A DNA stretch of 64,000 nt from an uncultured Planctomycetia bacterium (GTDB lineage Bacteria > Omnitrophota > Gorgyraeia > VGKH01 > JBHPFN01). The stretch's first letter is position 1, and each line of letters begins with the position of its first letter. The DNA lies in NCBI GenBank assembly GCA_964406665.1, contig CAYOSQ010000003.1, positions 186,558-250,557 of the forward strand, in the 5' to 3' direction. Made by a program: the position numbers and the translations under genes. Below are positions 11,867-60,447 of the stretch, in pieces. The notes under the pieces are model-generated. The model was not told the DNA's origin and searched no databases. It worked only from the letters and a program-made list of their open reading frames with translations.

Positions 11867-11954
11867 AAGCGCTTCCTTTTTACTGTTTCCCTGCCTTGAA
11901 AAATCCCGTTATTGTGTTATATTTGTATAGGATATAAAAAATAAAAAGCGTTTT

Positions 11955-12045
11955 GACGATAATGGCAAACCTGGAGTAATCCAGGGGCGCAAAGCTATAG
12001 GGCCCCGAATATTTTCGGGGTAGCCAGACCGCCGAAACAGAACGC
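11955..12045 (+). promoter_or_regulatory. Candidate c-di-GMP-I (GEMM) riboswitch
   Basis: GGCAAACC, a GNRA-capped hairpin (tggaGTAAtcca), GGGCGCAAAGC, and a P2 hairpin (GGGCCCCgaatattttCGGGGtaGCC) follow the order and sequence of the Vc2-type GEMM aptamer. It sits in the 5' leader of a secreted-protein gene. Confidence 0.55.
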
Positions 12046-38664: not shown

Positions 38665-39409
38665 AAAGAATAAAAAATCAAAGAAAATAAATGTTTTTCC
38701 TATCGCTTTAGGGATTATCGTTGCAGCAATTTTATGTTTTGTTTCTTTTAAGTTTTTTATTTTTATTAAAGGAATGGATAATTTTAAAGTTGAGAATATT
38801 TCTTGTCTCACAGAAGACTATCCTGCACTTGTAAATAAAATAAAAAGTATAAAGGGCAGGAATATTTTTTCCTTAGATTTAGATTATCTTGAGAGAAGGC
38901 TTATCAATAGCTTCCCGGGCATATATCAAGTGAGACTGCTTCGTGAGTTTCCTGATGAAGTAATAATCGATTATAAAAAACGAATTCCACTGGCAAAGCT
39001 ATATTATGGAAACAAGTATTATTTTATTGATAAAGAAGCTGTTGTTTTGCCGTATCGAGAAAATTTTTCTCAAGGCAATCTTTCAATCATTAGAGGAATA
39101 AAAATTAAGCCTGATAAATTGAAGACGGGTAGGGCAATAAGTGGTAAAAATTTCAGATTAGCACTTTATTTGGTAAGTGAACTTAATTCAGTTAACGAAT
39201 TTTTCGATTTTATTCCCCTTACCATAGATATTTCCAATAACAATAATATAGTATTTTATCTCGATAAAGTAGAAATACGTATCGGTCTAGAAAATCAGAA
39301 AGAAAGATTAGGGATCCTAAGGATACTTCTTAGACAGCCAGATATTGATTTGGGTAATATTAAATATATTGATTTGCGGTTTAAAGAACCGATTGTAGGA
39401 AAAAAATGA
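38645..39409 (+). CDS. ftsQ: Cell division protein FtsQ/DivIB
   Basis: N-terminal TM plus POTRA-like region, in the dcw position before ftsA. Confidence 0.7.
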   Translation: MAKKKNKKNKKSKKINVFPIALGIIVAAILCFVSFKFFIFIKGMDNFKVENISCLTEDYPALVNKIKSIKGRNIFSLDLDYLERRLINSFPGIYQVRLLREFPDEVIIDYKKRIPLAKLYYGNKYYFIDKEAVVLPYRENFSQGNLSIIRGIKIKPDKLKTGRAISGKNFRLALYLVSELNSVNEFFDFIPLTIDISNNNNIVFYLDKVEIRIGLENQKERLGILRILLRQPDIDLGNIKYIDLRFKEPIVGKK

Positions 39410-40623
39410 GAAATAAAACAATTTTCGCAGTTGATATCGGAGATACTTCCATAGTCGCTGTTTTAGCTGAAGTCGATAGGAAAGGCAAAGTTCTTTCTAT
39501 CGATTTTTCTGACGGAAAAAGCAGGGGGATTAGTCAGGGAGTAATAAGCGATATCCAAATGTTGGCTGATTCTCTGCATAAAGTTATTGAGAGTCTAAAA
39601 AGTAAAACAAAGAAAGACGTTCATGAAGCATATATTAATGTTTCTAATTGTAGTTGTCAGATAAAACACAGCCATGCTGTTATGCCTTTAACTGAAAGAG
39701 GCAGCAAAATTATCACCCAGGATGATATAAAAAATATTAATAACCAGGCTCGTCTTCTGGGATTGAATATTGACGAGGAGGTAATTTATTGTACTCCTTT
39801 AGAGTATAGAGTTGACGGCCACGGTCCGCGCAAAAATCCTTTAGGCCTATATGGTAGGAAACTTGAAGTTTCGCTTTTGATGGTCATTATAAAAATGGGC
39901 TATAAAGAAAATTTAATTAAAATGCTTAACCACACAGGGATTGAAGCTAGAGATCTGGTGTTTTCGTCTTTGGCTACAAGTCTTTCTGTGTTAGAAGAAG
40001 ACCAGAAGCAGCAGGGCTGTGTTTTGTTGGATATCGGCGCGACCACAACAAGCTTTTTAGTTTTCAAAGATGGTGGTTTGGTTGAAGTTGATGTAATCCC
40101 ATTTGGTGGTAGGGCTATTACAGAAAGCATTGCCGCAAAAGCTAAAATTCCAAATGACCTTGCTGAAGATTTGAAGAAGTCTTACGCTCTGGCATTTTGT
40201 GAAGATATTGATGAGAATGATGAAATTCTGATAAAGAAAAGCTCTGCATATCTTCCTATAAAAAGAAAACTTATCTGTGAGGCGGCTCAGTCAGAGTTGG
40301 CAAAATTTATATCACTTCTTCTGGAAAAAATTGAAAAGGTAAGAACAGTTGCAACCGGAGGTGTTGTTATTACCGGTGGTGCTGCTCAAATGGATGGTTT
40401 GGCAGAGTTAATCGAGAATAAATTACATATGCCTACGAAAGTAGGTAAAATAAAAGGGATATTTTTATCTTCTACAAAAGCCTCGCTTTATTCTACCGCA
40501 ATAGGTCTTGTTTCTTATGCGGTAGATAAGCAAATATTGCGCAAGGGCGTTGCTGATTTAGGTAAAGGATATTTAAAATCGCTTATGCTAAAGGTAAAAA
40601 ATCTGTATCAGGATTATTTTTAA
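39406..40623 (+). CDS. ftsA: Cell division protein FtsA
   Basis: Actin-like ATPase (AVDIGDTSIV..., LDIGATTT). Confidence 0.9.
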   Translation: MRNKTIFAVDIGDTSIVAVLAEVDRKGKVLSIDFSDGKSRGISQGVISDIQMLADSLHKVIESLKSKTKKDVHEAYINVSNCSCQIKHSHAVMPLTERGSKIITQDDIKNINNQARLLGLNIDEEVIYCTPLEYRVDGHGPRKNPLGLYGRKLEVSLLMVIIKMGYKENLIKMLNHTGIEARDLVFSSLATSLSVLEEDQKQQGCVLLDIGATTTSFLVFKDGGLVEVDVIPFGGRAITESIAAKAKIPNDLAEDLKKSYALAFCEDIDENDEILIKKSSAYLPIKRKLICEAAQSELAKFISLLLEKIEKVRTVATGGVVITGGAAQMDGLAELIENKLHMPTKVGKIKGIFLSSTKASLYSTAIGLVSYAVDKQILRKGVADLGKGYLKSLMLKVKNLYQDYF

Positions 40624-40692
40624 TTAAGAATGGTGAAAAACCTTGACATTTGTTCTATTATGATTTAGATTTAGATTGAAAGGGAGGAAGAT

Positions 40693-41016
40693 ATGGTCAA
40701 AACAAAAAGAACTAAAAGTGTAAAGCGAGCAAAAAAATCAACTAGGTCATCTAGTGCTAAAAGGATGATGCAATTCTTGCTGGATGCTCCCCAAGCCAGC
40801 AGAGTAAGTGTTGCTGGAAGTTTTAACAACTGGGATACTCAATCATTGTCAGCCAAGAGAGACAAAAAAGGTACGTGGAAAGTTCGCTTATCTCTTCCTA
40901 AGGGAAGGCATGAGTATCGTTTTATTGTTGATGATCAGTGGTGGAGTGATCCTCGCAGCAGCGAATGCGTATCAAATGAATTTGGTAGTATTAATAATGT
41001 GCTGGAAGTAAAATAA
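40693..41016 (+). CDS. Small CBM48/AMPK-beta-like glycogen-binding domain protein
   Basis: VAGSFNNWD...HEYRFIVDDQWW is a classic CBM48 signature. It sits in the slot where ftsZ would be expected. Confidence 0.7.
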   Translation: MVKTKRTKSVKRAKKSTRSSSAKRMMQFLLDAPQASRVSVAGSFNNWDTQSLSAKRDKKGTWKVRLSLPKGRHEYRFIVDDQWWSDPRSSECVSNEFGSINNVLEVK

Positions 41017-41083: not shown

Positions 41084-41803
41084 ATGAAATATATCTATGG
41101 CCCGGTAAAGTCAAGAAGGTTGGGTGCCTCCCTTGGGATAAGCCTAACACCTTATAAAGTTTGTAGTTTCGACTGTATTTATTGTCAATTGGGACGCACA
41201 ACTAAAAAAACCCAACAAAGATCACAGTACATAAACATTGCTGAAGTTTTAAAAGAGCTTCAAGCTTTCCTCGGAATTCAAGAATCTAATGATGAAAAGA
41301 TAGATTATATCACCCTCGCTGGTTTCGGCGAGCCTACACTTAATAGCAATATCGAAGAATTAATCCTATCAATTAAAAGACTTACCTCAATACCTATTGT
41401 TATACTAACAAATAGTTCTCTGTTGTCTTTAGCAGAAGTACGCAAGGCTTTATTGAATGCCGATATTGTTATGCCGACTCTTTGTTCAGTAGAGGAAGAC
41501 GATTTCGAACTGATTAATCGTCCTGTAAGAGATTTAAAGATAAAAGATATTGTCAAAGGGCTTATAGAATTTCGTAAAATATTTAATGGTAAGATTTGGC
41601 TTGAGATAATGGTTATTAAAGGTGTAAACGATAGCGTTGTTAAGATGAAAAAAATCGAAGAGATTATTAGTCAAATAAAACCAGATAAAGTATTTTTAAA
41701 TTCTCCTGTGCGTCCACCATCAGAGGAGTTTATTGAGCCGGCTGATAAAAGAACGCTTATCAGGATGCGCGAATCTCTAGGAGATAATGTTGAGATTATA
41801 TAA
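41084..41803 (+). CDS. Radical SAM protein (CxxxCxxC; COG0731-like)
   Basis: GPVKSRRLGASLGISLTPYKVCSFDCIYC cluster, with GFGEPTL. Confidence 0.75.
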   Translation: MKYIYGPVKSRRLGASLGISLTPYKVCSFDCIYCQLGRTTKKTQQRSQYINIAEVLKELQAFLGIQESNDEKIDYITLAGFGEPTLNSNIEELILSIKRLTSIPIVILTNSSLLSLAEVRKALLNADIVMPTLCSVEEDDFELINRPVRDLKIKDIVKGLIEFRKIFNGKIWLEIMVIKGVNDSVVKMKKIEEIISQIKPDKVFLNSPVRPPSEEFIEPADKRTLIRMRESLGDNVEII

Positions 41804-42343: not shown

Positions 42344-43593
42344 ATAAACCAAATAATAAAAAAAGCTTTGCCCTGATTACTGCTTTAGGTTTATGTATTC
42401 TCTTCGGTGCTATCATTACCGGAGTATTTATGTCTTCGGTAAGAGAAATCTCTTCTACCAAAAGACAGATTGGTACCACCCAAGCACTCTGGCTAGCAGA
42501 ATCAGCTGCCAGAGAAAAGATCCAAGAGATAAAAACATACTTTGATACTGGTGAGTTTCCTAAACATTTCCCCGTAGACCCTGATAAGGATATAGGTAAA
42601 GAGTATGATTGGGGTTTTGAGTCTGGAGAAGGTGAAACCCATACCGTCCCATCAGGACACGATCCTGATTCAGGGGGTGATCCTGATTCGGGCAATGTCG
42701 GTGGTCGGTCAAAAGTCTCGCCTCCCTGGAGGGGAAATATTGAAAGCATTGTTTATGCCATGGATAATTCCATGGATATTCCAACTATAGCTGCCAGCGC
42801 TCAACTAATCAGCGTCAACACTTACGGCTCTGGAGCAGGGAAACCTCCTATCCCAGGAGACTACATTTATCTTTTAACTGCATCTGCAACAGTTCCTATA
42901 TTAGGAGGCTCAACATTAAAGACAGTACAATGCTCAGTAAAATACAGCTATGTTGCCCCTATGAACATTGAAGTTGGTGATGCAACTGTGGGAGAAGATG
43001 GGGTATTGCAACCTGGGTTTAGTAATATTATTTATTATTCAGATTTGAATCTGCCTACAGGTAAATATGATATAAGCTATTCTGCTAATTACGATAAGAT
43101 TGAAGGTCCGGGGGGCGGTACAGCAGAAATTCATCAGAGCCTTCAACATGAAAATGTATATATTTCTTTAGGAAAAACTGAGGTATTACTTAAAGAATGG
43201 GTGGATGATGGCGAGGGTTTTGATGAATCTGGAAGATTTCCCTGCAAGGCCAACGACGGTGAAGCCTGTTACGGAGAATTTAATATTCCTTGGGATTTGC
43301 AGACAGGGTTTACTGAGCAGTTTACTCATATTGCTGATAATGGGATTAATCAAGAACCACAATATTATTTTCAAGTAGATTCAGAGCCTTTTTTAGGAGA
43401 ACTGTTTTTTCTATCTCCCGCCGGACTTCCGGTTTCTTATGATGAAGTTAATAATGATTGTGATCTTGATGAAGAATCTACATGCAGTAAGATGTGTGAC
43501 AAAATTGATGAAGGTTGCGGGAGAAATGGTGCTGGAGGATGGTTTGTACGACTTGCGGACATATGGAATTTAGGTATAGTTTTAGGGAGCTGA
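42340..43593 (+). CDS. PilX-N-like (type IV pilus minor pilin-like) secreted protein
   Basis: The N-terminus SFALITALGLCILFGAIITGVFMSS..QALWLAESAAREKI resembles the PilX N-terminal domain. The rest is unknown and cysteine-containing. Confidence 0.4.
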   Translation: MNKPNNKKSFALITALGLCILFGAIITGVFMSSVREISSTKRQIGTTQALWLAESAAREKIQEIKTYFDTGEFPKHFPVDPDKDIGKEYDWGFESGEGETHTVPSGHDPDSGGDPDSGNVGGRSKVSPPWRGNIESIVYAMDNSMDIPTIAASAQLISVNTYGSGAGKPPIPGDYIYLLTASATVPILGGSTLKTVQCSVKYSYVAPMNIEVGDATVGEDGVLQPGFSNIIYYSDLNLPTGKYDISYSANYDKIEGPGGGTAEIHQSLQHENVYISLGKTEVLLKEWVDDGEGFDESGRFPCKANDGEACYGEFNIPWDLQTGFTEQFTHIADNGINQEPQYYFQVDSEPFLGELFFLSPAGLPVSYDEVNNDCDLDEESTCSKMCDKIDEGCGRNGAGGWFVRLADIWNLGIVLGS

Positions 43594-43991
43594 TTAAAGG
43601 TAAGCATCCTGATCGTGATGATTGGCTTGTAAGCAGGAACAGGCGTCTTGACTTAGATCTTTTAGGTCAAATGCCACCCCGAGGAGGATGGTCTTACCGA
43701 GCCCAGGATGAACTTTCCAAGATTATAGCTCAAGCATCAATTGATGAGATTTCTAAAGTCGTGGGATTCCCGGATTGGCTAGGGTTTTTAGGACTGGGAT
43801 TTTGTTATTGCGAACACGTAGAAAGATCTAATCGCCGATTAACACTAGCGTTAGTGCCGCAACTCATCATTCTTGTTGACCAGAATTCAGACGCTTATTC
43901 TAAGCTGAATGATATTTTAAACAGTGATAAGTTAATTCTGCACTGGGGAGACCTAGAATTGGTCGAGAAGGGGATAGAACAAAATAAGTAA
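43564..43991 (+). CDS. Hypothetical protein
   Basis: ORF; I trimmed its start to the first ATG that minimises overlap with the upstream gene. Confidence 0.4.
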
Positions 43992-44020: not shown

Positions 44021-45073
44021 GTGGAAAACGACAACTTATATAAAATGCTATTAAAGAATATAGAAGCATGCGATGAAGCTTGTAAGAAGCCTAAAGATCA
44101 AATGCTGTTAGGCGAAGGGAGTTTAAATGCAGATGTTATGTTTGTTGGCATAGCCCCTAATATGTCTTTTGATGGTAAGGTAAATAGGAGCGTCTTCGGA
44201 GAATATAGTCGAGCAGGAGAAAAAGTAAGACCAACAATGGCGGCACTGGTTGAGAAATATAGCAAAATAAATAATAGTCAGGAAATACTATTTTGGTTAA
44301 CTAATATAATAAAATGCGGCTGCGGAAAAGACGCGTTTGCTAGCAATATGAAAAGATGCGATAAGTTCTTGAGAGAAGAGATAGGTATAATTAAGCCGAA
44401 AGTCATAGTTTTATTTGGGCGTAAAATTATAAAACATTTCCTAGGTGAAGTGATGGTGCATGGTAAAATTTCAAGCTTAGATAATCAATACGCATGCGTA
44501 CATTCATATCATCCCGCAGCTAGGGGTGGTTTGTTTGAGAATGGGACAGATAAGTTAATGGATGCAGTTGTTGAAGCGATGGGGGAAGGAATTCATAGGA
44601 GAGATGGTTTAAAGGACGAATTAGTTAACAAGAGCAATGAAAAGATACAAGGGGTTATTGATGCGAGACAGCGAAGATCTCATAAGAAGAAAAGCAGAGT
44701 AATTATAACTTCAGCTGAAATGCTTCTTTTGAGCGCTGGTAGTCATAATGCAAGAAGCTTATTTAATAATTTCTCAAATAGAATTAAATCAAAATTTCCT
44801 TTGGTTTATAATGAACCGCATACAGATTCTTTTATTTTCTATATTAATTACGAGGGTAGACAGAAAAGACTATTTGATGTTCATGTAAGCAATACAGGTT
44901 TGAGGGTGCATTTGATGAATAGGAAGAAAGAAATTCAAGATCCTTTTAAAATATGCACTCTTAAAATGAGGAAGAGTGGTGCGACACGCATGGAAGTGAA
45001 AATTGAGAGAGTCGATGATATTGATAGACTTCTGTTTGTTGTTGAACAAATATATAAAATTAATACAACATAA
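44021..45073 (+). CDS. Uracil-DNA glycosylase superfamily (family 4/5-like, Fe-S) protein with a C-terminal extension
   Basis: LGEGSLNADVMFVGIAPN (motif A-like), SYHPAARGG (motif B-like) and Cys residues placed as in 4Fe-4S UDGs, plus ~170 extra C-terminal aa. GTG start with an aaggag RBS. Confidence 0.55.
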   Translation: MENDNLYKMLLKNIEACDEACKKPKDQMLLGEGSLNADVMFVGIAPNMSFDGKVNRSVFGEYSRAGEKVRPTMAALVEKYSKINNSQEILFWLTNIIKCGCGKDAFASNMKRCDKFLREEIGIIKPKVIVLFGRKIIKHFLGEVMVHGKISSLDNQYACVHSYHPAARGGLFENGTDKLMDAVVEAMGEGIHRRDGLKDELVNKSNEKIQGVIDARQRRSHKKKSRVIITSAEMLLLSAGSHNARSLFNNFSNRIKSKFPLVYNEPHTDSFIFYINYEGRQKRLFDVHVSNTGLRVHLMNRKKEIQDPFKICTLKMRKSGATRMEVKIERVDDIDRLLFVVEQIYKINTT

Positions 45074-45129
45074 TAAAGATGAGCTTTGTGATTTTTTGAG
45101 AAATAAAAGTCTGAGAGGTAGTATAAAAA

Positions 45130-46707
45130 ATGGACGACAGTTTTAAAAATTATGACTCTTTAGAGCAAATAATAGAGGACAGGCAAGACCTTTTTGTCCC
45201 TCAGCGGAAGAAATATCTCACCAAGTCTAAATATATAAACGCTCTTCAATGTCACAAGTATTTGTGGATGAGGTGCAATAGGCCTGAGGATATTCCGGAG
45301 CCAAGTAAAAGCTTACAACACATATTTAGCGTTGGTAAAGAAGTTGGTCGGTTGGCTCAGCAAAGGTTTCCCGGAGGCATAAATATTTCAGAGGAAGATT
45401 TTTTTGAAAATTTAAAGACAACAGAGGCGCTATTGAAGCAGCCTGACCGTAAGCCGCTTTATGAGGCGGGAATCTCATCAGGACGTCTTTATGCACGGGC
45501 AGATGTTCTTTGTCCAGTTGACAATGAAGCATGGGATCTAATCGAAGTGAAATGCTCAACCTGCTCAAAAGAGATCAAAGATGTCTATTATCATGATATT
45601 GCCTTTCAGAAATATTGCTATGAAAAGTCCGGGTTAAAGATTCGTAAATGTCTTCTATTGCATATCAGCAAAGAATATATTCGTGATGGAGAGATTGACG
45701 TTAATGATTTTTTTACATTGCAAGATTTAACCGAGCCTGTAGGGAATTTGCAAGAAGGAATCGATGAAAATGTCGAGGGATTTTTGAAGATAATTGACAT
45801 GGCAGCACTTCCAAATTGTTCTATTCATGAAGGTTGCCGTAAGCCTTATGAATGTCCCCTTATAGAGGAGTGCTGGAAGTTTTTACCTCCTTTTAATATT
45901 TTTCAATTATATGGCATGCGATGGAAGAGTCGTTTTGATTTCTTCGATAAAGGATTAAGAGACATAAAAGACGCTCCTAAGGATGACAAAAAAATAAAAG
46001 AAAAACATTTAATGCAAATAGAAAGCGTTGAGACTGGGGAGCCTCATATCGAGTCTCTGGGAATTTCTGATTTCTTAAAAGATTTACAATATCCAATTTA
46101 TTATATGGATTTTGAGACAATGTTTGAAGCAATTCCTCCGTTTAATGGGACGAAGCCGTATCAGCAAATACCTTTCCAGTTTTCAGTTCATGTTCAAGAC
46201 AATCCGGGAGGAGATTTAAAGCATTTCTCGTTTTTATGGAAAGAGTCAAGTGACCCGAGAGAGAGTTTTATTCGAGAATTAAAGGATTGTTTAGGAGGTC
46301 AAGGAAGCATCGTCGCGTATTATTATAGTTTTGAGAAGAGTCGCTTAACGGAATTAGCAGAATTGTTTCCAAAGTATAAGGATTGGGTTGATTCTATATT
46401 GAATAGAATGATTGATCTTCTTGGGCCGTTTAAGAATTTTCATTATTATCACGCTTCTCAGAAGGGCAGCGCCTCTATAAAAAAAGTTTTGCCTGCAATT
46501 ACCGGCAAGGGATATGAAGGAATGGAAATTTCAGGTGGAGGCGAGGCAAGTTTGGAGTATGCGAGAGTGACTAATGGAGATGCCTCAGAAGATGAAAAAA
46601 ACGCAGTATATAGCGCTTTAGAAAAATATTGTACTTTAGATACTGAGGGGATGGCGTGGATTGTAGAGAAGTTGAGGAAACTAAGCAAAGAAACAAGTGG
46701 AGGCTGA
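45130..46707 (+). CDS. DUF2779-like protein: Cas4/RecB-like PD-(D/E)xK nuclease N-domain plus C-terminal domain
   Basis: D...DLIEVKCS...Y PD-(D/E)xK-like core with flanking cysteines, and a C-terminal YYMDFETMFEAIPPF...QIPFQFSVH block typical of DUF2779. Confidence 0.5.
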   Translation: MDDSFKNYDSLEQIIEDRQDLFVPQRKKYLTKSKYINALQCHKYLWMRCNRPEDIPEPSKSLQHIFSVGKEVGRLAQQRFPGGINISEEDFFENLKTTEALLKQPDRKPLYEAGISSGRLYARADVLCPVDNEAWDLIEVKCSTCSKEIKDVYYHDIAFQKYCYEKSGLKIRKCLLLHISKEYIRDGEIDVNDFFTLQDLTEPVGNLQEGIDENVEGFLKIIDMAALPNCSIHEGCRKPYECPLIEECWKFLPPFNIFQLYGMRWKSRFDFFDKGLRDIKDAPKDDKKIKEKHLMQIESVETGEPHIESLGISDFLKDLQYPIYYMDFETMFEAIPPFNGTKPYQQIPFQFSVHVQDNPGGDLKHFSFLWKESSDPRESFIRELKDCLGGQGSIVAYYYSFEKSRLTELAELFPKYKDWVDSILNRMIDLLGPFKNFHYYHASQKGSASIKKVLPAITGKGYEGMEISGGGEASLEYARVTNGDASEDEKNAVYSALEKYCTLDTEGMAWIVEKLRKLSKETSGG

Positions 46708-46725
46708 TATGAATCGGAGGTTGAA

Positions 46726-47943
46726 ATGTTAACAGCATTGGTTGTTGTCGTTGTTGTAATTAATATCGTGATATTAATTATATTGCTCACGCGTAATTCG
46801 GATACGAATCTTATTAAGTTTGAAGGCAGCATCAGAGATGAAGTGTCAAAAAATCGCGAAGAAATGTCTAAAACACTAAAAGACTTCAGCGATTCATCTC
46901 TAAAGCAGTTTTTAGGTTTAACGCAAATAAACGAGCAGAAGCTTGAGAATGTGCGTAAGACAATTGAAGAAAGGCTTAAGTCTTTACAGGATGACAATTC
47001 TCAGAAGCTCGAAAAGATGAGAGAAACAGTCGATGAAAAATTACACAATACTCTAGAGAAGCGATTGGGTGAGTCGTTTAAATTGGTCAGCGATCGACTT
47101 GAATCGGTTCAACAGGGCCTTGGAGAAATGCAGGCATTGGCAACAGGGGTAGGCGATCTTAAAAAAGTATTAAGCAATGTTAAAACAAGAGGAACATTGG
47201 GTGAGATTCAGCTAGAAACATTATTGGATCAAATACTGACTCCGGATCAGTATGCGAAAAACGTCGCTACCAAGAGTGGAAGTCGGGAAAATGTTGAGTT
47301 TGCCATAAAGTTACCAGGCAAAGAGGATAAGATTCTCTGGTTGCCAATAGATGCAAAGTTTCCCAAAGAGGATTACGAGCGCTTAGTAGATGCTCAAGAA
47401 CAGGCCAATCCCGATCTTGTAGAAGAATTAGGAAAGGCACTTGAGCAACGCATTAAGTCTGAGGCAAAAGATATCCAAAACAAATATATCGATCCACCAA
47501 ACACAACCGATTTTGGGATTTTGTTTCTAGCAACCGAAGGGTTGTATGCTGAGGCACTCCGAAGGCCAGGCCTATTTGAATCATTACAGAGAGAACACAG
47601 AGTTATACTCACCGGACCGACAACAATAGCAGCGTTATTGAATAGTTTGCAGATGGGATTTAGAACTCTTGCGATAGAGAAGCGCGCAAGTGAGGTCTGG
47701 AACTTATTGGGAGCGATTAAGACGGAATTCGCTAAGTTTGGAGATCTTCTAGTAAAAACACACAAGCAATTAGCAGCTGCCAGCAATACAATAGAAGGTG
47801 CAACAAGGAAAACAAGAACGATTGAAAGAAAATTAAGAGATGTTCAGGAGCTTCCAGTTAAGGAGTCAGCTAAATTATTAGGCAAAGTTGAAGATTTCGA
47901 TATGGAAATTGATACAGAAAATAATTCAGAAGAGCAAGAGTGA
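46726..47943 (+). CDS. rmuC: DNA recombination protein RmuC
   Basis: N-terminal TM, coiled coil, and a C-terminal RmuC nuclease-like domain (TRGTLGEIQLETLL...WLPIDAKFP). Confidence 0.85.
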   Translation: MLTALVVVVVVINIVILIILLTRNSDTNLIKFEGSIRDEVSKNREEMSKTLKDFSDSSLKQFLGLTQINEQKLENVRKTIEERLKSLQDDNSQKLEKMRETVDEKLHNTLEKRLGESFKLVSDRLESVQQGLGEMQALATGVGDLKKVLSNVKTRGTLGEIQLETLLDQILTPDQYAKNVATKSGSRENVEFAIKLPGKEDKILWLPIDAKFPKEDYERLVDAQEQANPDLVEELGKALEQRIKSEAKDIQNKYIDPPNTTDFGILFLATEGLYAEALRRPGLFESLQREHRVILTGPTTIAALLNSLQMGFRTLAIEKRASEVWNLLGAIKTEFAKFGDLLVKTHKQLAAASNTIEGATRKTRTIERKLRDVQELPVKESAKLLGKVEDFDMEIDTENNSEEQE

Positions 47944-48067
47944 GGATTAAAGAAGATTGTCATTTTTGTACTTATAGAGATACGGTTAGGGATATTGTGT
48001 AAAATATGAAGCACATGACAAATGTTTTATAGTTGAAAATAAGACAATATAAAGGTATGCTAATGAG

Positions 48068-48237
48068 GTAGCTAGATGGCTTTTAGCTTAGAACATCACG
48101 GTGTTTCACCGTGGACGCGATAAAGGCTAGACTACCCTTTTCGGATCTCATAGTCGCGTATTTGTGTGGTACCCAAACACGCGAATATGACATCCGGGCA
48201 CTTTGAAAGATTAGTAAGGAAAAAGCCATCTAGCTAC
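48068..48237 (+). ncRNA. Retron msr-msd non-coding RNA flanked by a1/a2 inverted repeats
   Basis: A 17-bp perfect inverted repeat, gtagctagatggctttt (48068-48084) and aaaagccatctagctac (48221-48237), brackets a structured region. That region has an msr-type hairpin (cacggtg-tttc-caccgtg) and a long imperfect msd stem, and it lies immediately upstream of a retron-type RT on the same strand. Confidence 0.7.
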
Positions 48238-48257
48238 ACTCGTATTAAGGGATTTTT

Positions 48258-49766
48258 ATGTCATTAGACAAACTAAAGAAAATAGAAGAATTGATTTCTT
48301 CTAAGGAACATAAAGATAGATTAAAATCTATATCCTTGATAAAAGAATTGTCAGTTGATGAAGTAAAGACATTGTTAATTAAGTATGCAACTTTTTGGGA
48401 TAAACAATTCAAAAGAGAATTTTCTAAAGAGGCACTTGATCAGTTCGGAAAAGAAATTATCGAGTCCATAGTTAATTTAGTAAAGAACGAAAATCTTCCC
48501 ATAAAATTCACGATAAATCTTCTGAGTAAATTCGATGATCCTTTCGTTATTGATTTCATTGCAACGTACCTTTCGCATTTTCGAACAGATATTAGGCTTG
48601 AATCTCAGAGGATCATCTTGGAATACAGTAGCGAATATGCAGTTTTTGTGCAATGGTGCAATGATTTAAAGGATTTCAAATTATTGCAAAATCTACTGGA
48701 TAAAATTCCAGTTGAAAATATCGCTAAATATATAGATCGTTTAAACGATTGGGACCGTAATGCTTTTTTAGGTAAGCCTGCCACTAAAGAATATTTAGCG
48801 CATAGAAAACTTACCAATCTATTTGCAGTCATCGATGATTCTACTGAAGGTAGGCTTTTGGTGAGAAAAACAGAATCGTCAAAAATATATTTAGAGAGTA
48901 TTTCAGAGCGACTTCAAGCACCAAAAGGACTTATAGGATGGGTGGTTAGAAATTGGGATGCTGTTGATTCTCTCTATGCGACCTTTACAATTCCAAAAAA
49001 AAGTGGAGGCCAGCGCTCGATATCTTCTCCACCAGATAAACTTAAGTATGTGCAGGAGCTAATTTATAAAAATGTGTTGTCTAAAGCTTTGCTCCATCCA
49101 TGTTGCCACGGCTTTATATCGGGACGATCCATAATAACCAACGCCGAATATCATACAAATAAGGATGTGGTAGTCAATGTGGATATAAAAGATTTCTTTC
49201 CATCCATATCAGCTTCGAGGGTTTATGGAGTATTTCAATCTCTCGGATTTAACAAGCATGAGGCAAGACTGCTAACACGTATTGCAACACGGAATAATTG
49301 TTTACCACAAGGAGCCCCAACAAGTCCTATAATAGCAAACATAACATGTAAAAGACTTGATAGTAGGCTTTCTGGGTTAGTTAAAAAAATGGATGGTAAA
49401 TATAGTCGATACGCAGATGATCTTACCTTTAGTGGCGATGAAAAAATATTAAAAGTGATTCCTCGTATTTATAAAATTATAGGCGCCGAAGGATTTCTTG
49501 TCGCAATAGAAAAAACTAGAGTTACACGAAAAGGAAATCGTCAGGAAGTAACAGGCTTAACGGTAAACAAGAAAATCTCGATACAACGAAAAAGGCGCAA
49601 GAATCTAAGGGCTATTATTCATCATTTCAAAACAAGTAAAAGTATTCATTGGAACGGGAAAGATTTATCTGTTCAAAGCCTAAAAGGGCACATTGCCTTT
49701 TTAAAGTCAGTACATCCTGAGACCGCGAGTAGCTATAATGATGTAATTAAGAAAAGTAAAAAGTGA
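48258..49766 (+). CDS. Retron-type reverse transcriptase with a ~240-aa N-terminal extension of unknown function
   Basis: RT motifs are present: SGGQRSISSPP, HGFISGRS, VNVDIKDFFPSI, LPQGAPTSPIIAN, YSRYADDLTF. The retron-specific NRQEVTGLTVN (VTG) motif is also present. The RT domain begins near residue 245, preceded by an alpha-helical-looking domain. Confidence 0.8.
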   Translation: MSLDKLKKIEELISSKEHKDRLKSISLIKELSVDEVKTLLIKYATFWDKQFKREFSKEALDQFGKEIIESIVNLVKNENLPIKFTINLLSKFDDPFVIDFIATYLSHFRTDIRLESQRIILEYSSEYAVFVQWCNDLKDFKLLQNLLDKIPVENIAKYIDRLNDWDRNAFLGKPATKEYLAHRKLTNLFAVIDDSTEGRLLVRKTESSKIYLESISERLQAPKGLIGWVVRNWDAVDSLYATFTIPKKSGGQRSISSPPDKLKYVQELIYKNVLSKALLHPCCHGFISGRSIITNAEYHTNKDVVVNVDIKDFFPSISASRVYGVFQSLGFNKHEARLLTRIATRNNCLPQGAPTSPIIANITCKRLDSRLSGLVKKMDGKYSRYADDLTFSGDEKILKVIPRIYKIIGAEGFLVAIEKTRVTRKGNRQEVTGLTVNKKISIQRKRRKNLRAIIHHFKTSKSIHWNGKDLSVQSLKGHIAFLKSVHPETASSYNDVIKKSKK

Positions 49767-50013
49767 AAAGGTGCTTGTTAAAAAAGACAGCCAGGTTTTT
49801 ATCTTTAAATGCAATAACGGACACGGCGAGAAAGCAGAGATAGAAGAAATTTTTGAGAAAATGCTTCAAAATTTTCAATTCACGGAGGAAGGTTTGAATT
49901 AGGGCTTGCGACTGGCGACAGCCAGGAGCAGCACCGAAAGGCAGCTTAGCTTTAATGGATTGTTATTGCAGGCAGTCCTGGAGCAAAGCGAAAGGGATTG
50001 AGGTGAGGGGGCG

Positions 50014-50568
50014 ATGATTTATTTACCATTACTGGTTGGCATCGGCATCATTATTGCTAAGGTGATTTATCGCATGAGGAAAAAGAAGGCGATTGCTCCG
50101 AGATGGCTCAATAGGTTTTTGACTATTTGTGCAACAGTCTGTTTGATTTCTTCACTCATTCCAATACTTTTCACTGCATGGTTTTTTAGTTCTATGTCAA
50201 TGTCTGCAAGTAAAGTTTTTCAAAGATATATTGCTGACCCTATTCCCACCACTGTACGCATTGTCTATGGTAAGGGTGTTTCATGGCAAGGATATTCAGC
50301 CCAAGTAGTTTTTACTACTGATAAAAAGACTTTTAGCGAACTTTTTTCGGATTACCAAATCTTGCCTTTTGAGTGTGACTATCCTACTGTCAATCGCTGT
50401 TGCGATACTGAGATATATTATGACAATAAACTTTTCAAAGAGGATTTAAGCAAAGTGTCTGGACTTCAATGTTTTTATAAAGAGGGAGATGTTAAGCGAG
50501 GACAAAATTCTGTAGTTTATTGGGACAAGGATAATAACAAAATATTCTTTAGAAGTAGTGGTGGATAA
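50014..50568 (+). CDS. Two-TM membrane protein (candidate retron effector)
   Basis: Two N-terminal hydrophobic helices, then a ~120-aa soluble Cys-containing domain, directly downstream of the retron RT. Confidence 0.5.
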   Translation: MIYLPLLVGIGIIIAKVIYRMRKKKAIAPRWLNRFLTICATVCLISSLIPILFTAWFFSSMSMSASKVFQRYIADPIPTTVRIVYGKGVSWQGYSAQVVFTTDKKTFSELFSDYQILPFECDYPTVNRCCDTEIYYDNKLFKEDLSKVSGLQCFYKEGDVKRGQNSVVYWDKDNNKIFFRSSGG

Positions 50569-50651
50569 TGAGTGTATTTAAACGAAATAATATTTATAAA
50601 AAATAAACTAGAGATTGAGCATAGCAGCTTCTTTGATATAATATAAACATC

Positions 50652-50725
50652 TGCGCCCATAGCTCAATTGGATAGAGCACCAGTCTTCGGAACTGGGTGT
50701 TGCAGGTTCGAGTCCTGCTGGGCGC
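50652..50725 (+). tRNA. tRNA-Arg (anticodon UCG)
   Basis: Cloverleaf with gcgccca/tgggcgc acceptor, anticodon stem ccagt/actgg, loop ctTCGga, T-arm gcaggTTCGAGtcctgc. Confidence 0.8.
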
Positions 50726-50738
50726 GTAGATTATTAAA

Positions 50739-53348: not shown

Positions 53349-53460
53349 GCTCATATTTTTGCAATTTAATTCTTATAACTATAATTGCCATAGGTTTTTA
53401 CTGCAATTTAATCTTGCCTAAAAGGTTTTAAATGGTATAATAATTTTCGATAAATCAGTG

Positions 53461-53535
53461 GGCCGTTAGCTCAATGGTAGAGCAGGAGCCTCTTAAGCTC
53501 AAGGTTGAAGGTTCAAATCCTTCACGGCTCACCAA
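53461..53535 (+). tRNA. tRNA-Lys (anticodon CUU)
   Basis: Cloverleaf with anticodon loop ctCTTaa, T-arm gaaggTTCAAAtccttc, encoded CCA. Confidence 0.8.
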
Positions 53536-53563
53536 ATCCACTTATTTTTAAATCAAAATCCGC

Positions 53564-53980
53564 ATGAAAAGGTTCGAAATCATAGAACACACCGCTGATA
53601 TTGGCATAAAGATATTCGGCAGTGATTTAAAAGAACTGTTCTGCAATGCTGCTGCAGGGATGTTCGATATTATAGCCGATTCAAAAGAAGTCAACCGAAA
53701 GAAGCATATTAACGTTGAGGTTAAAGCTGATAATATTGAAGAGCTTTTGGTAAACTGGTTAACTGAGCTCTTGTTCCATTTCAATGCTAATTTTATTATT
53801 CTTAAAGAATTTTCTATAACTGAAATATCACAAAATAATATTAAAGCTGTAGTCTCAGGTGAAAAAATCGATAAAAACAAGCATAGTATAAATACAGAGA
53901 TAAAGGCAGTAACTTATCATGAGCTTAAAGTAGAAAAAAAGGATTTTGGCTGGAACGTACAGGTTATCTTCGACGTGTAG
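53564..53980 (+). CDS. Archease
   Basis: MKRFEIIEHTADIGIKIFG... archease N-terminal signature, upstream of rtcB. Confidence 0.85.
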   Translation: MKRFEIIEHTADIGIKIFGSDLKELFCNAAAGMFDIIADSKEVNRKKHINVEVKADNIEELLVNWLTELLFHFNANFIILKEFSITEISQNNIKAVVSGEKIDKNKHSINTEIKAVTYHELKVEKKDFGWNVQVIFDV

Positions 53981-53990
53981 GAGGAATTTT

Positions 53991-54203
53991 ATGGCAAGTT
54001 GGGTTACGGTTCACACAACAAATGATGAAGCTGAGGTTAATTTAGTCAAAGGAATATTAGAGGAATATGGAATAAATTGTATTATCGAAAGCTCAAAACA
54101 TAGCCCTTGGATAACAGCACCATTGTTTAATCAGTTTGAGTTAAAAGTTTTGAAAGAGAAACTTGAAGAAGCTAAAGAAATAATTAAAACCGCAGGAGAT
54201 TAA
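53991..54203 (+). CDS. Small conserved protein (DUF2007-like)
   Basis: WVTVHTTNDEAEVNLVKGILEEYGI motif. Its start follows a ggagg RBS after the archease stop. Confidence 0.5.
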   Translation: MASWVTVHTTNDEAEVNLVKGILEEYGINCIIESSKHSPWITAPLFNQFELKVLKEKLEEAKEIIKTAGD

Positions 54204-55661
54204 ATGGCAGAGGTTTGGCAGGGTACGCTAAACAAGATTGATGATTTTCGATATGAGATCCCTAGGTCTTATAAGCAAGGAATGCGTGTCAGGGGTTTGA
54301 TATATGCGGATGATAAGTTGATAAAAAACATCCGTCATGATAAGGCAGCTGAACAAGTTGCAAATGTAGCTTTTTTACCCGGGATTGTCGGTAGCTCTTT
54401 AGCAATGCCGGATATTCACTGGGGCTATGGTTTTTCGATTGGTGGAGTTGCTGCAACTGACCCTGAAAACGGTGGTGTAGTTTCTCCGGCGGGTGTGGGT
54501 TATGATATTAATTGCGGCGTGCGGCTGCTTAGAACTAATTTAGAGTATGATGATATAAAAGATAAAATTGAAGATCTGACCTATGCGTTGTTTAACAATA
54601 TTCCTTCAGGCGTAGGTTCAAAGGGAGATATTCGCTTATCTTATAATGATGAAAAGAAGATTTTAGTAAATGGTGCTAAATGGGCTGTTGAAAATGGATA
54701 TGGTGCTGCAGAGGATTTAGAGGCTACAGAAGAATTTGGCGCAATAAAGGGCGCAGATCCTTTAAGTGTATCGGAGAGAGCGATTAAAAGAGGCAAGGCT
54801 CAGTCTGGAACACTTGGTTCAGGAAATCATTTTTTAGAAGTACAAGTAATCGATAAAATATTTGATGAAGAAAGTGCAGAAGTTTTTAATCTTCGGGTTG
54901 GTCAAATAACAGCAATGATTCATTCTGGATCCCGTGGTTTAGGTTATCAGGTTTGTGATGATTTTGTAAAAAGTATGATAAAATGTATTAGTAAATACAA
55001 AATCAATGTTCCTGACAGGCAACTTGTCGGTGCACCGGTTAATTCGCCGGAGGCAGAAGCTTATATTTCTGCGATGAGATGTGCGGCTAATTATGCTTGG
55101 GCAAACCGGCAGTGTTTGATGCATTTAACAAGAGAAGTATTCCAGAAGATGTTCGGCAGAAGCTGGCGCGATATGGATATGCATCTGATTTATGATGTTG
55201 CTCATAATATCGCAAAATTTGAAAAACACAAAGTAAAAGGTAAAGAAAAGGTTTTATGTGTTCATAGAAAAGGCGCGACGCGTGCTTTCCCACCTGGACA
55301 TCCGGAGTTACCGCAAAAGTATCAAAAGACTGGTCAGCCGGTAATTATTCCGGGGGATATGGGGAGGAATTCTTATCTTCTTACAGGGACAGAAAAGGCC
55401 GCAGAAACTTTTTACTCTACTTGTCATGGTGCTGGAAGATTAAAGTCGCGCACTGCTGCAACTAAAGAGTTTGATGCGCAATGGCTTGTTAATGATTTAA
55501 AATCTAAGGGAATCTTTGTAAAGGCCTCAGGACGTGGTACTATATCAGAAGAAGCTCCGGGAGCCTACAAGGATGTAAACGATGTGGTTGATGTTGTACA
55601 TAATGCGGGAATTTCCCACAAGGTTTGCCGTATGCGGCCTTTGGGAGTAATAAAGGGGTGA
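54204..55661 (+). CDS. rtcB: RNA-splicing ligase RtcB
   Basis: 485 aa with conserved RtcB blocks (GYDINCGVR, HSGSRGLG, CHGAGR). Confidence 0.95.
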   Translation: MAEVWQGTLNKIDDFRYEIPRSYKQGMRVRGLIYADDKLIKNIRHDKAAEQVANVAFLPGIVGSSLAMPDIHWGYGFSIGGVAATDPENGGVVSPAGVGYDINCGVRLLRTNLEYDDIKDKIEDLTYALFNNIPSGVGSKGDIRLSYNDEKKILVNGAKWAVENGYGAAEDLEATEEFGAIKGADPLSVSERAIKRGKAQSGTLGSGNHFLEVQVIDKIFDEESAEVFNLRVGQITAMIHSGSRGLGYQVCDDFVKSMIKCISKYKINVPDRQLVGAPVNSPEAEAYISAMRCAANYAWANRQCLMHLTREVFQKMFGRSWRDMDMHLIYDVAHNIAKFEKHKVKGKEKVLCVHRKGATRAFPPGHPELPQKYQKTGQPVIIPGDMGRNSYLLTGTEKAAETFYSTCHGAGRLKSRTAATKEFDAQWLVNDLKSKGIFVKASGRGTISEEAPGAYKDVNDVVDVVHNAGISHKVCRMRPLGVIKG

Positions 55662-60247: not shown

Positions 60248-60373
60248 GCGCCTGCCCCAAAAAAATGGGAATGGCGCAAAAGAAATGATGCGCCTGCCCC
60301 AAAAAAATGGGACTGGCGCAAAAGAAATGATGCGCCTGCCCAAAAAAAATGGGACTGGCGCAAAAGAAATGAT
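60248..60373 (+). repeat. 3 x 42-bp direct tandem repeats abutting tRNA-Arg
   Basis: Units at 60248-60289, 60290-60331 and 60332-60373: GCGCCTGCCCCAAAAAAATGGGA(A/C)TGGCGCAAAAGAAATGAT. Each begins with the tRNA 5' 7-mer gcgcctg and contains a GCGCC...GGCGC hairpin. Confidence 0.85.
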
Positions 60374-60447
60374 GCGCCTGTGGCCCAATTGGATAGGGCA
60401 ACTGCCTACGGAGCAGTAGGTTGGAGGTTCGAATCCTCCCAGGCGCA
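60374..60447 (+). tRNA. tRNA-Arg (anticodon ACG)
   Basis: Cloverleaf with anticodon stem actgc/gcagt, loop ctACGga, T-arm ggaggTTCGAAtcctcc. Confidence 0.8.

Follow-up and report, generated by a model that had tools for sequence, protein, structure and literature searches.

The stretch of DNA considered here, called the window, is a 64-kb segment of contig CAYOSQ010000003.1 from an uncultured bacterium of the Omnitrophota. Metagenome contigs of JGI and ENA contain exact matches to it. Between bp 44021 and 50727, the window contains a retron within a run of consecutive genes, all on the + strand. The order is UDG-like gene, DUF2779 gene, rmuC, retron non-coding RNA (ncRNA), retron reverse transcriptase (RT), 2-TM gene and tRNA-Arg(UCG), where UDG stands for uracil-DNA glycosylase and 2-TM for a protein with two transmembrane (TM) segments. 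The first three genes are tightly spaced: 56 nt separate the UDG-like gene from the DUF2779 gene, and 18 nt separate the latter from rmuC. A preliminary description took the run to be a defense or DNA-repair island integrated next to the tRNA gene, in which the UDG-like, DUF2779 and RmuC proteins may co-operate with, or be guarded by, the retron. Every DNA-processing gene that it placed around the retron is present. With moderate confidence, we read the stretch otherwise, as a patchwork, specific to the lineage, in which independent accessory genes and a type-XIII-like retron without its usual partner surround a core rmuC. That is, the stretch is neither a mobile island nor a single system. 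The components are described next, beginning with the retron.

The retron ncRNA (msr-msd) extends from bp 48063 to 48243 of the + strand and is recognized by its inverted repeat, its folding energy and an architecture common to its relatives. The a1/a2 stem, formed by bp 48063–48090 and 48215–48243, is 23–28 nt long and ends 15 nt before the RT start. Inside the stem are the msr hairpin (bp 48097–48113) and the msd hairpin (bp 48141–48197). Folding of the ncRNA gives a minimum free energy of −75 kcal/mol and a z-score of −7.7. An invariant TAG is found at bp 48089–48091, and the G at 48091 is a candidate branching G. By analogy with retron biology, the RT would use the msd hairpin as template for msDNA, with priming at the G beside the a1/a2 stem. 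The same plan is repeated upstream of the RT gene in four related loci, as follows: an a1/a2 stem spanning 124–139 nt, a long inner hairpin, and an msr hairpin, the last being conserved with compensatory changes across the related loci. No Rfam retron family matches the window; the only Rfam matches are tRNAs and two riboswitches. A few bases 5′ of the ncRNA stem, at bp 48033–48061 of the + strand, is a promoter-like site, TTGAAA-17-TATGCT, found by consensus match only. The retron cassette begins 3′ of the conserved rmuC flank and has a promoter-like site of its own.

The RT gene (bp 48258–49766, + strand) encodes 502 residues. Among PADLOC models the best match is RT_XIII, at 326 bits and 40 bits above the next, and the NCBIfam retron St85 model scores 258.6 bits, above its cut-off of 235. 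The motifs NAxxH (as TNAEYH), YADD and VTG are intact, and in an alignment with relatives they are invariant or nearly so. The AlphaFold2 (AF2) model has a mean predicted local distance difference test (pLDDT) score of 86.9. It consists of an all-α repeat domain, residues 1–193, followed by the RT domain, whose best fold matches in the PDB are the retron RTs Eco2, Ec86, Eco7 and Ec78. The N-terminal helical domain resembles no known effector, and searches of the PDB and Pfam with it gave nothing significant. Fold, motifs and profile scores thus confirm that an ncRNA with an extended RT is found here, as first proposed, and on these features the retron is reckoned to be a real and autonomous cassette. 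A PADLOC search had been suggested beforehand; besides the RT_XIII match, it yielded a match of the UDG-like protein's C-terminal domain to PDC-S18.

Full-length relatives of the RT amount to a handful among 5.8 billion protein clusters, with identities of 31–42%. A HEAT-like motif, HWDRxLR, in the N-terminal domain is common to them, and some relatives give faint HEAT_2 matches. In each of five full-length relatives, the gene that follows the RT, after a gap of ~0–60 nt, encodes a PF01555 N6/N4 DNA methyltransferase. This count covers the five relatives with readable contigs; those on short contigs (P0006, P0009, P0011, P0031, P0033 and P0036) were left out. The loci pairing a HEAT-fused RT with an orphan methyltransferase are L159:5807–8348, L160:4581–7381, L161:5823–8322, L162:5812–8264 and the P0002 locus. 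All five lie in defense islands, among BREX, restriction-modification, helicase-nuclease or integrase genes. A scan of viral contigs with the RT alignment returned generic retron RTs, essentially the RT domain only, which are of no use for partner statistics, and a plasmid search found no full-length RT relatives. Methyltransferases are not mentioned in the 2020 retron classification (PMC7736814) nor in the 2026 SPIRE survey. In the 64-kb window there is no methyltransferase, and no remnant of one is found in the spacer between the RT and 2-TM genes. Therefore, the window retron most likely either lacks a partner within the 64 kb or depends on one whose gene lies elsewhere.

How does this retron compare with known types? 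The window RT and all five relatives have PADLOC RT_XIII as their best match, at 297–332 bits, the assignment being by profile score. Type XIII retrons, such as Mx162, Mx65, Sa163 and Ne144, are defined by a SWIM/winged-helix gene, cluster 114 (Mestre et al. 2020, PMC7736814). The window retron resembles them in the RT_XIII profile, in the presence of helical HEAT/ARM-type repeats in the system, and in having an ncRNA with an a1/a2 stem upstream of the RT. It differs in carrying the helical repeats as an N-terminal part of the RT itself, there being no separate HEAT/ARM gene in the window. The partner differs as well: the relatives carry the PF01555 methyltransferase, and the window copy is without a recognized partner. 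No Pfam match to a winged-helix/SWIM Zn-finger protein (cluster 114) is found among the window neighbors or among the tabulated genes of the five relatives. By profile and alignment, then, the RT appears to belong to a type-XIII-like subfamily in which a HEAT-like domain is fused to the N-terminus.

The RT gene is followed by a 247-nt spacer (bp 49767–50013, no strand assigned) and then by the 2-TM gene (bp 50014–50568, + strand). The spacer's sole content is an ORF of 46 codons at bp 49770–49910 (VKRCLLKKDSQVFIFKCNNGHGEKAEIEEIFEKMLQNFQFTEEGLN), after which comes a G+C-richer segment; the spacer bears no similarity to the methyltransferases of the related retrons. Evidence for structured RNA in the spacer is weak (z-score, −2.7). 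The 2-TM protein has 184 residues and, by hydropathy, two hydrophobic segments, residues 1–19 and 35–53, in agreement with the earlier call, followed by a soluble C-terminal domain of ~125 residues. It has no Pfam, NCBIfam or PADLOC match, and PDB and Pfam searches with the C-terminal domain gave nothing significant. Among the 5.8 billion protein clusters there is one non-self homologue, with 38% identity. The 2-TM gene is absent from the related RT loci.

On the other side of the ncRNA lies rmuC (bp 46726–47943, + strand). The protein has one N-terminal TM helix, a coiled coil and a PD-(D/E)xK nuclease domain, and it matches PF02646 over the full length of the model (E 2e-77, 260.6 bits), which bears out the original annotation. 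RmuC identity is 60–88% within the Omnitrophota and 55–65% in other phyla, so that it tracks taxonomy; the best matches are all from the Omnitrophota, the closest being Candidatus Omnitrophota metagenome-assembled genomes. From its sequence relationships, rmuC is judged to be the conserved, vertically inherited core gene of the stretch.

The surroundings of rmuC were compared across 80 genome rmuC loci and six metagenome contigs of close rmuC relatives. The 80 genome loci are too distant to inform on synteny with the window. Of 21 remoter loci of Omnitrophota type, 12 have rmuC in a conserved HhH-GPD–rmuC–PgeF–CutA context (L010, L014, L016, L019, L022, L027, L030 and others). PgeF (Cu-oxidase_4) follows rmuC in these 12, and CutA then follows in most of them. 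An HhH-GPD (EndoIII-like) glycosylase is found upstream of rmuC in several of these loci, and AddA/AddB-like genes follow rmuC in L037 and L046. Repair genes near distant Omnitrophota rmuC genes include HhH-GPD (six ORFs), AddAB (two) and DinB (one). L057 is the only one of the 80 loci with a DUF2779 gene beside rmuC, a frequency compatible with chance.

In the window's own subclade, the HhH-GPD/PgeF/CutA context is gone. The five nearest rmuC relatives, L167-type, L169, L172, L173 and L007, have RmuC identities of 87.7%, 85%, 83%, 81% and 79%, respectively. For each of the five, rmuC is the sole gene in common with the 64-kb window. The synteny comparison thus finds the region variable, with entirely different surroundings in the five nearest relatives. 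Two of the five, L167 and L173, have defense genes beside rmuC. In L167, the upstream genes are PDC-M26A/nSTAND3, DUF2357-PDDEXK_7 and AbiU, and immediately downstream is an OLD/AriA/GajA-like ATPase-TOPRIM gene. In L173, a helicase-nuclease and a type III methylase gene lie upstream. The alignment between the window and L167 runs ~35 nt past the rmuC stop codon and then splits, with the retron following in the window and the OLD-like gene in L167. Because the relatives share only rmuC and hold alternating defense genes, the rmuC surroundings are fluid and defense-rich in this Omnitrophota subclade.

This arrangement recalls the defense hotspots and islands found beside core genes. The likenesses are that a retron or, in the nearest relative, an OLD-family nuclease gene lies just 3′ of rmuC, and that the genes around rmuC in relatives include AbiU, PDC-M26A and a type III methylase. 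The differences are that the window holds no mobile-element genes and that no conserved outer flank was recovered; therefore, a hotspot bounded by core genes is not proven. A further feature of L167 is a 53-nt element, GGGGACG.TTCTATTTTTAAGTAATTAAGTATTGTGTCCC, an imperfect inverted repeat present in nine copies within 8.3 kb (L167:4892–13158). Almost all genes of the run, AbiU, rmuC and the OLD-like gene among them, are followed by one copy, in a cassette-array-like layout. The element is absent from the window.

The UDG-like gene (bp 44021–45073, + strand) encodes 350 residues. Profile search and predicted structure indicate a family-4/UdgX-like fold followed by an α/β C-terminal domain. The UDG domain is encoded at bp 44021–44620. 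PF03167 matches residues 31–171 (E 2e-13), and the C-terminal domain, residues 190–350, accounts for ~160 residues, so that the early description of a UDG-superfamily protein with an added domain is upheld. The AF2 model has a mean pLDDT of 78.7 and matches 1l9g, 1ui0, 4zby and UdgX in Foldseek searches with TM-scores of 0.6–0.7. By sequence as well as by fold, the closest solved structures are family-4 UDG and UdgX. The clade conserves cysteines 17, 99 and 113, and the window protein also has C21; the proposed Fe-S assignment fits these four residues, and the protein may bind an Fe-S cluster. The likeness to family-4 UDG and UdgX is therefore in the UDG fold and the family-4 cysteine pattern. 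The differences are considerable: motif A is GIAPN (G[ILW]APN across the clade) rather than the catalytic GEAPG of family 4, the scores are below the family-4 cut-offs (45.6 vs. 125.3 for TIGR00758 and 51.3 vs. 250 for NF040953), and the C-terminal domain is unique. In a search of 1.84 billion representatives, only 18 clusters match at E ≤ 1e-10. Most of the nearest relatives listed stand alone and consist of ~185–206 residues, and none of the 150 matches listed covers the C-terminal domain. For that domain, PDB and Pfam searches gave nothing significant beyond a weak DUF5655 match (17.5–19.7 bits, below the cut-off of 24). The PADLOC match to PDC-S18, a defense candidate, has E 1.7e-8. Judging by these sequence comparisons, the protein belongs to a rare “GxAPN” clade and would not be a standard repair UDG. 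Divergent UDG-fold proteins, Brig1 and Brig2, are known antiviral enzymes; the window protein is likened to them by description, as a divergent UDG-fold protein beside defense genes.

The DUF2779 gene (bp 45130–46707, + strand) encodes an N-terminal Cas4-like PD-(D/E)xK nuclease and a C-terminal PF11074 RNase-H-like 3′–5′ exonuclease domain, the fusion reported for DUF2779 proteins (PMC3985635, PMC13621843). PF11074 matches over the full model (E 4e-45, 153.5 bits) and the D...ExK motif is present, so the nuclease assignment made at the outset is sound. Recognizable motifs are DLIEVK, Cys41 and Cys236-x5-Cys242-x5-Cys248, together with YYMDFET in the PF11074 domain. PDB and Pfam searches with the N-terminal half gave nothing significant. 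The 18-nt gap suggests that the gene is co-transcribed with rmuC. The company kept by DUF2779 relatives is informative, as follows. The 77 ORFs flanking 28 relatives include GmrSD (four), DNA methylases (three), integrases (two), nucleotidyltransferases, PLD, Schlafen-AlbA_2 and DUF559; in a control by the same method, with 73 ORFs around distant rmuC loci, none of these families is among the 25 commonest. On plasmids, DUF2779 genes lie beside WYL-, PD-(D/E)xK- and OLD-type genes. A metagenome scan anchored on DUF2779 (72 loci) found no UDG or RT nearby, and it found RmuC 5–9 kb from DUF2779 in one marine lineage only. The UDG-like gene, from a rare clade, and the DUF2779 gene, whose relatives have defense-like neighborhoods, thus have the look of accessory and not of core genes.

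Given these components, could the run be one co-operating system? In such a system, the retron would guard or work with the UDG-like, DUF2779 and/or RmuC proteins, RmuC perhaps being a nuclease effector in the manner of UG2 RT-associated RmuC or ShdA. The genes are adjacent and on one strand, RmuC-domain proteins can serve as defense effectors, as in Shield (PMC10270631), and a TM-RmuC cluster (433) accompanies some UG2 RTs (PMC9226505). The likeness to ShdA, by description, and to the UG2-associated TM-RmuC is one of TM, coiled-coil and RmuC-nuclease architecture beside a defense RT. The window RmuC also gives a weak match to PADLOC RTasRmuC (41 bits, E 1.8e-11). This match is to be set against the 260 bits scored with canonical PF02646, and by that comparison the protein is considered a canonical, cross-phylum RmuC and not a member of the RT-linked RmuC cluster (RTasRmuC; UG2 cluster 433). 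Moreover, Shield is reported solely in Pseudomonas, and the RT beside rmuC in the window is a retron RT rather than a UG2/DRT2 RT (Drt2 score, 37.6). Co-occurrence is lacking in either direction. Relatives of the three proteins are found in none of the five related retron loci, as tblastn confirms for the four with DNA. Conversely, the rmuC loci (80 from genomes and six on metagenome contigs of close relatives) and the 72 DUF2779 loci were searched with tblastn, and not one yielded an RT. Conservation of RmuC extends across phyla with no RT at its side, and the retron has its own promoter-like site. The suggestion that the three proteins co-operate with or are guarded by the retron is therefore unsupported, and we regard a single co-operating system as very improbable. 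A smaller system is conceivable: a two-gene abortive-infection pair of retron and 2-TM protein on the model of type IV retron Ec48, the 2-TM protein having taken over from the methyltransferase as effector. As in Ec48, the RT has on its 3′ side the gene for a small protein with two TM segments near its N-terminus; here this gene is the next same-strand ORF, and no terminator-like site was found between it and the RT gene. Retron cassettes are modular and exchange effectors (PMC7736814), and clade-3 RTs have known 2-TM effectors. The window RT, however, groups with type XIII and not with the 2-TM-associated clade, the 247-nt spacer contrasts with the ~0–60 nt that precede the methyltransferase in relatives, and PADLOC has no match for the 2-TM protein. 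Further, its sole homologue adjoins QueH and SpoIID, with no RT in the 0.5–0.8 kb available upstream. Because of this single homologue without a nearby RT, and because of the spacer, the 2-TM protein is unlikely to be the retron effector; the two-gene system is accordingly unlikely, and the 2-TM gene and the tRNA gene are probably mere neighbors of the retron.

Two other accounts concern the run as a whole. The first is that of a mobile genomic island integrated at tRNA-Arg(UCG). The run does end at this tRNA gene (bp 50652–50727, + strand, with a promoter-like site at bp 50615–50642), as noted at the outset, and a defense element lies within the block. The signs of integration are absent, however. 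In the 39.4–55.7 kb segment, none of the 18 ORFs has a Pfam match to a phage integrase, recombinase or transposase. A second copy of the 22-nt tRNA 3′ end, the direct repeat anticipated at the left boundary, is not found anywhere in the 64-kb window with up to three mismatches allowed, and no direct repeats bound the block in the 43.0–51.5 kb segment. Elements inserted by tRNA-targeting integrases are found at the 3′ end of the tRNA gene, whereas this block precedes the + strand tRNA gene, on its 5′ side. Comparison of composition with the flanks, likewise proposed beforehand, revealed no anomaly: the GC content of the five genes is 0.35–0.40 against a window mean of 0.36, and their synonymous codon usage (z −1.64 to +0.67) is indistinguishable from that of the other 54 window genes. 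Finally, rmuC is conserved and vertically inherited, which speaks against the block being one acquired unit. An island integrated at the tRNA gene is thus hardly credible, and tRNA-Arg(UCG) is probably an ordinary neighbor, not an integration boundary. What stands of the defense or repair island is that the retron is a defense-type element, that the locale differs in relatives, and that the UDG-like and DUF2779 genes are accessory-like. The second account is a housekeeping one, in which the UDG-like, DUF2779 and RmuC proteins form a plain repair and recombination cluster, and the retron is the sole accessory element, inserted between rmuC and the tRNA gene. Codon usage is host-like, rmuC lies beside the repair genes already named in other Omnitrophota, a DUF2779 homologue is quasi-essential in JCVI-syn3.0 (PMC13621843), and the three genes are tightly spaced. 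Yet the altered motif A of the UDG-like protein, its 18-cluster clade and scores that fall well short of the NCBIfam cut-offs set it apart from a standard repair UDG; the neighbors of DUF2779 relatives are GmrSD, methylase, integrase, PLD and Schlafen-AlbA_2 genes or, on plasmids, WYL- and OLD-type genes; and in all five nearest relatives rmuC is found without either gene. A plain repair role for the UDG-like and DUF2779 proteins is possible, but we consider a housekeeping cluster rather doubtful.

We therefore return to the patchwork reading. In this reading, rmuC would lie in a fluid part of the genome of this subclade, flanked left and right by accessory genes of differing kinds that have gathered there. 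Upstream would be two independently acting DNA enzymes, i.e., the “GxAPN” UDG-fold/DUF5655-like fusion and the DUF2779 Cas4-like nuclease/exonuclease. Downstream would be the self-contained retron cassette, at the junction where the nearest relative has an OLD-family nuclease gene. Several points weigh against this reading. The loss of synteny at 79–88% RmuC identity could reflect general genome fluidity, not a hotspot. The relatives compared lie outside the window's genus and speak only indirectly to the presence or absence of each module at the exact locus. The association with a methyltransferase comes from five loci, and the evidence for the promoter-like site upstream of the ncRNA is a consensus match. 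The 2-TM gene could have been recruited as an effector, since type IV retrons have 2-TM effectors. Lastly, the 56- and 18-nt spacing fits an operon of the UDG-like gene, the DUF2779 gene and rmuC, and some functional link among these three may therefore exist. A bolder version joins the parts: the RT lineage would fall outside the two retron surveys, the methyltransferase would be its normal partner, and the partner's slot would here be vacated or taken by the 2-TM protein. The position next to rmuC would be an exchange point for defense genes (the retron here, the OLD nuclease in the nearest relative), and the UDG-fold and DUF2779 proteins would be stand-alone antiviral enzymes. That all of these hold together is a rather long shot.

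Other features of the window deserve brief mention. Just left of the block, the ORF at bp 43515–43991 deviates more in codon usage than any other in the window (z −3.0) and has a GC content of 0.43. It encodes 158 residues with a CxxC motif, has no family match, and overlaps the preceding ORF by 79 nt. To the right, the genes described as secreted and without assigned family were found as such: four ORFs extend to bp 53348, each with an N-terminal signal-like or lipoprotein-like hydrophobic segment and none with a Pfam match. The first of them, listed from bp 50668, starts inside tRNA-Arg; the ATG at bp 50740 is the likely true start, giving the signal peptide MKKTFLIIFLLFFATTCFAQ. Right after these four genes, at bp 53460–55661, come tRNA-Lys(CUU) and then archease, a DUF2007 protein and RtcB, an RNA-repair/ligation cassette. 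At bp 60248–60380 are three tandem copies of a 42-nt unit, 96–98% identical, which overlap the start of tRNA-Arg(ACG) at bp 60374. At bp 39406–41016, ftsA closes a cell-division/cell-wall cluster, and next come genes for a CBM48-domain protein and a radical-SAM protein instead of ftsZ. The radical-SAM protein (bp 41084–41803) gives weak PADLOC matches to prokaryotic viperin (42 bits), which probably reflect generic radical-SAM similarity. The two riboswitches, FMN (flavin mononucleotide) at bp 569–700 and c-di-GMP-I at bp 11954–12036, are both above the Rfam gathering thresholds.

A tRNA-bounded island of retron-linked DNA enzymes, if true, would have suggested a new retron-guarded repair pathway, which the evidence does not support. 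The analysis offers three leads for comparative or experimental work, not surprises, as follows. There is a subfamily of HEAT-fused retron RTs regularly paired with an orphan DNA methyltransferase, of which the window copy is without its partner. The “GxAPN” UDG-fold clade and the DUF2779 nucleases, in their defense-like surroundings, are candidate antiviral enzymes. Finally, positions adjacent to rmuC in one Omnitrophota subclade carry alternating defense genes.

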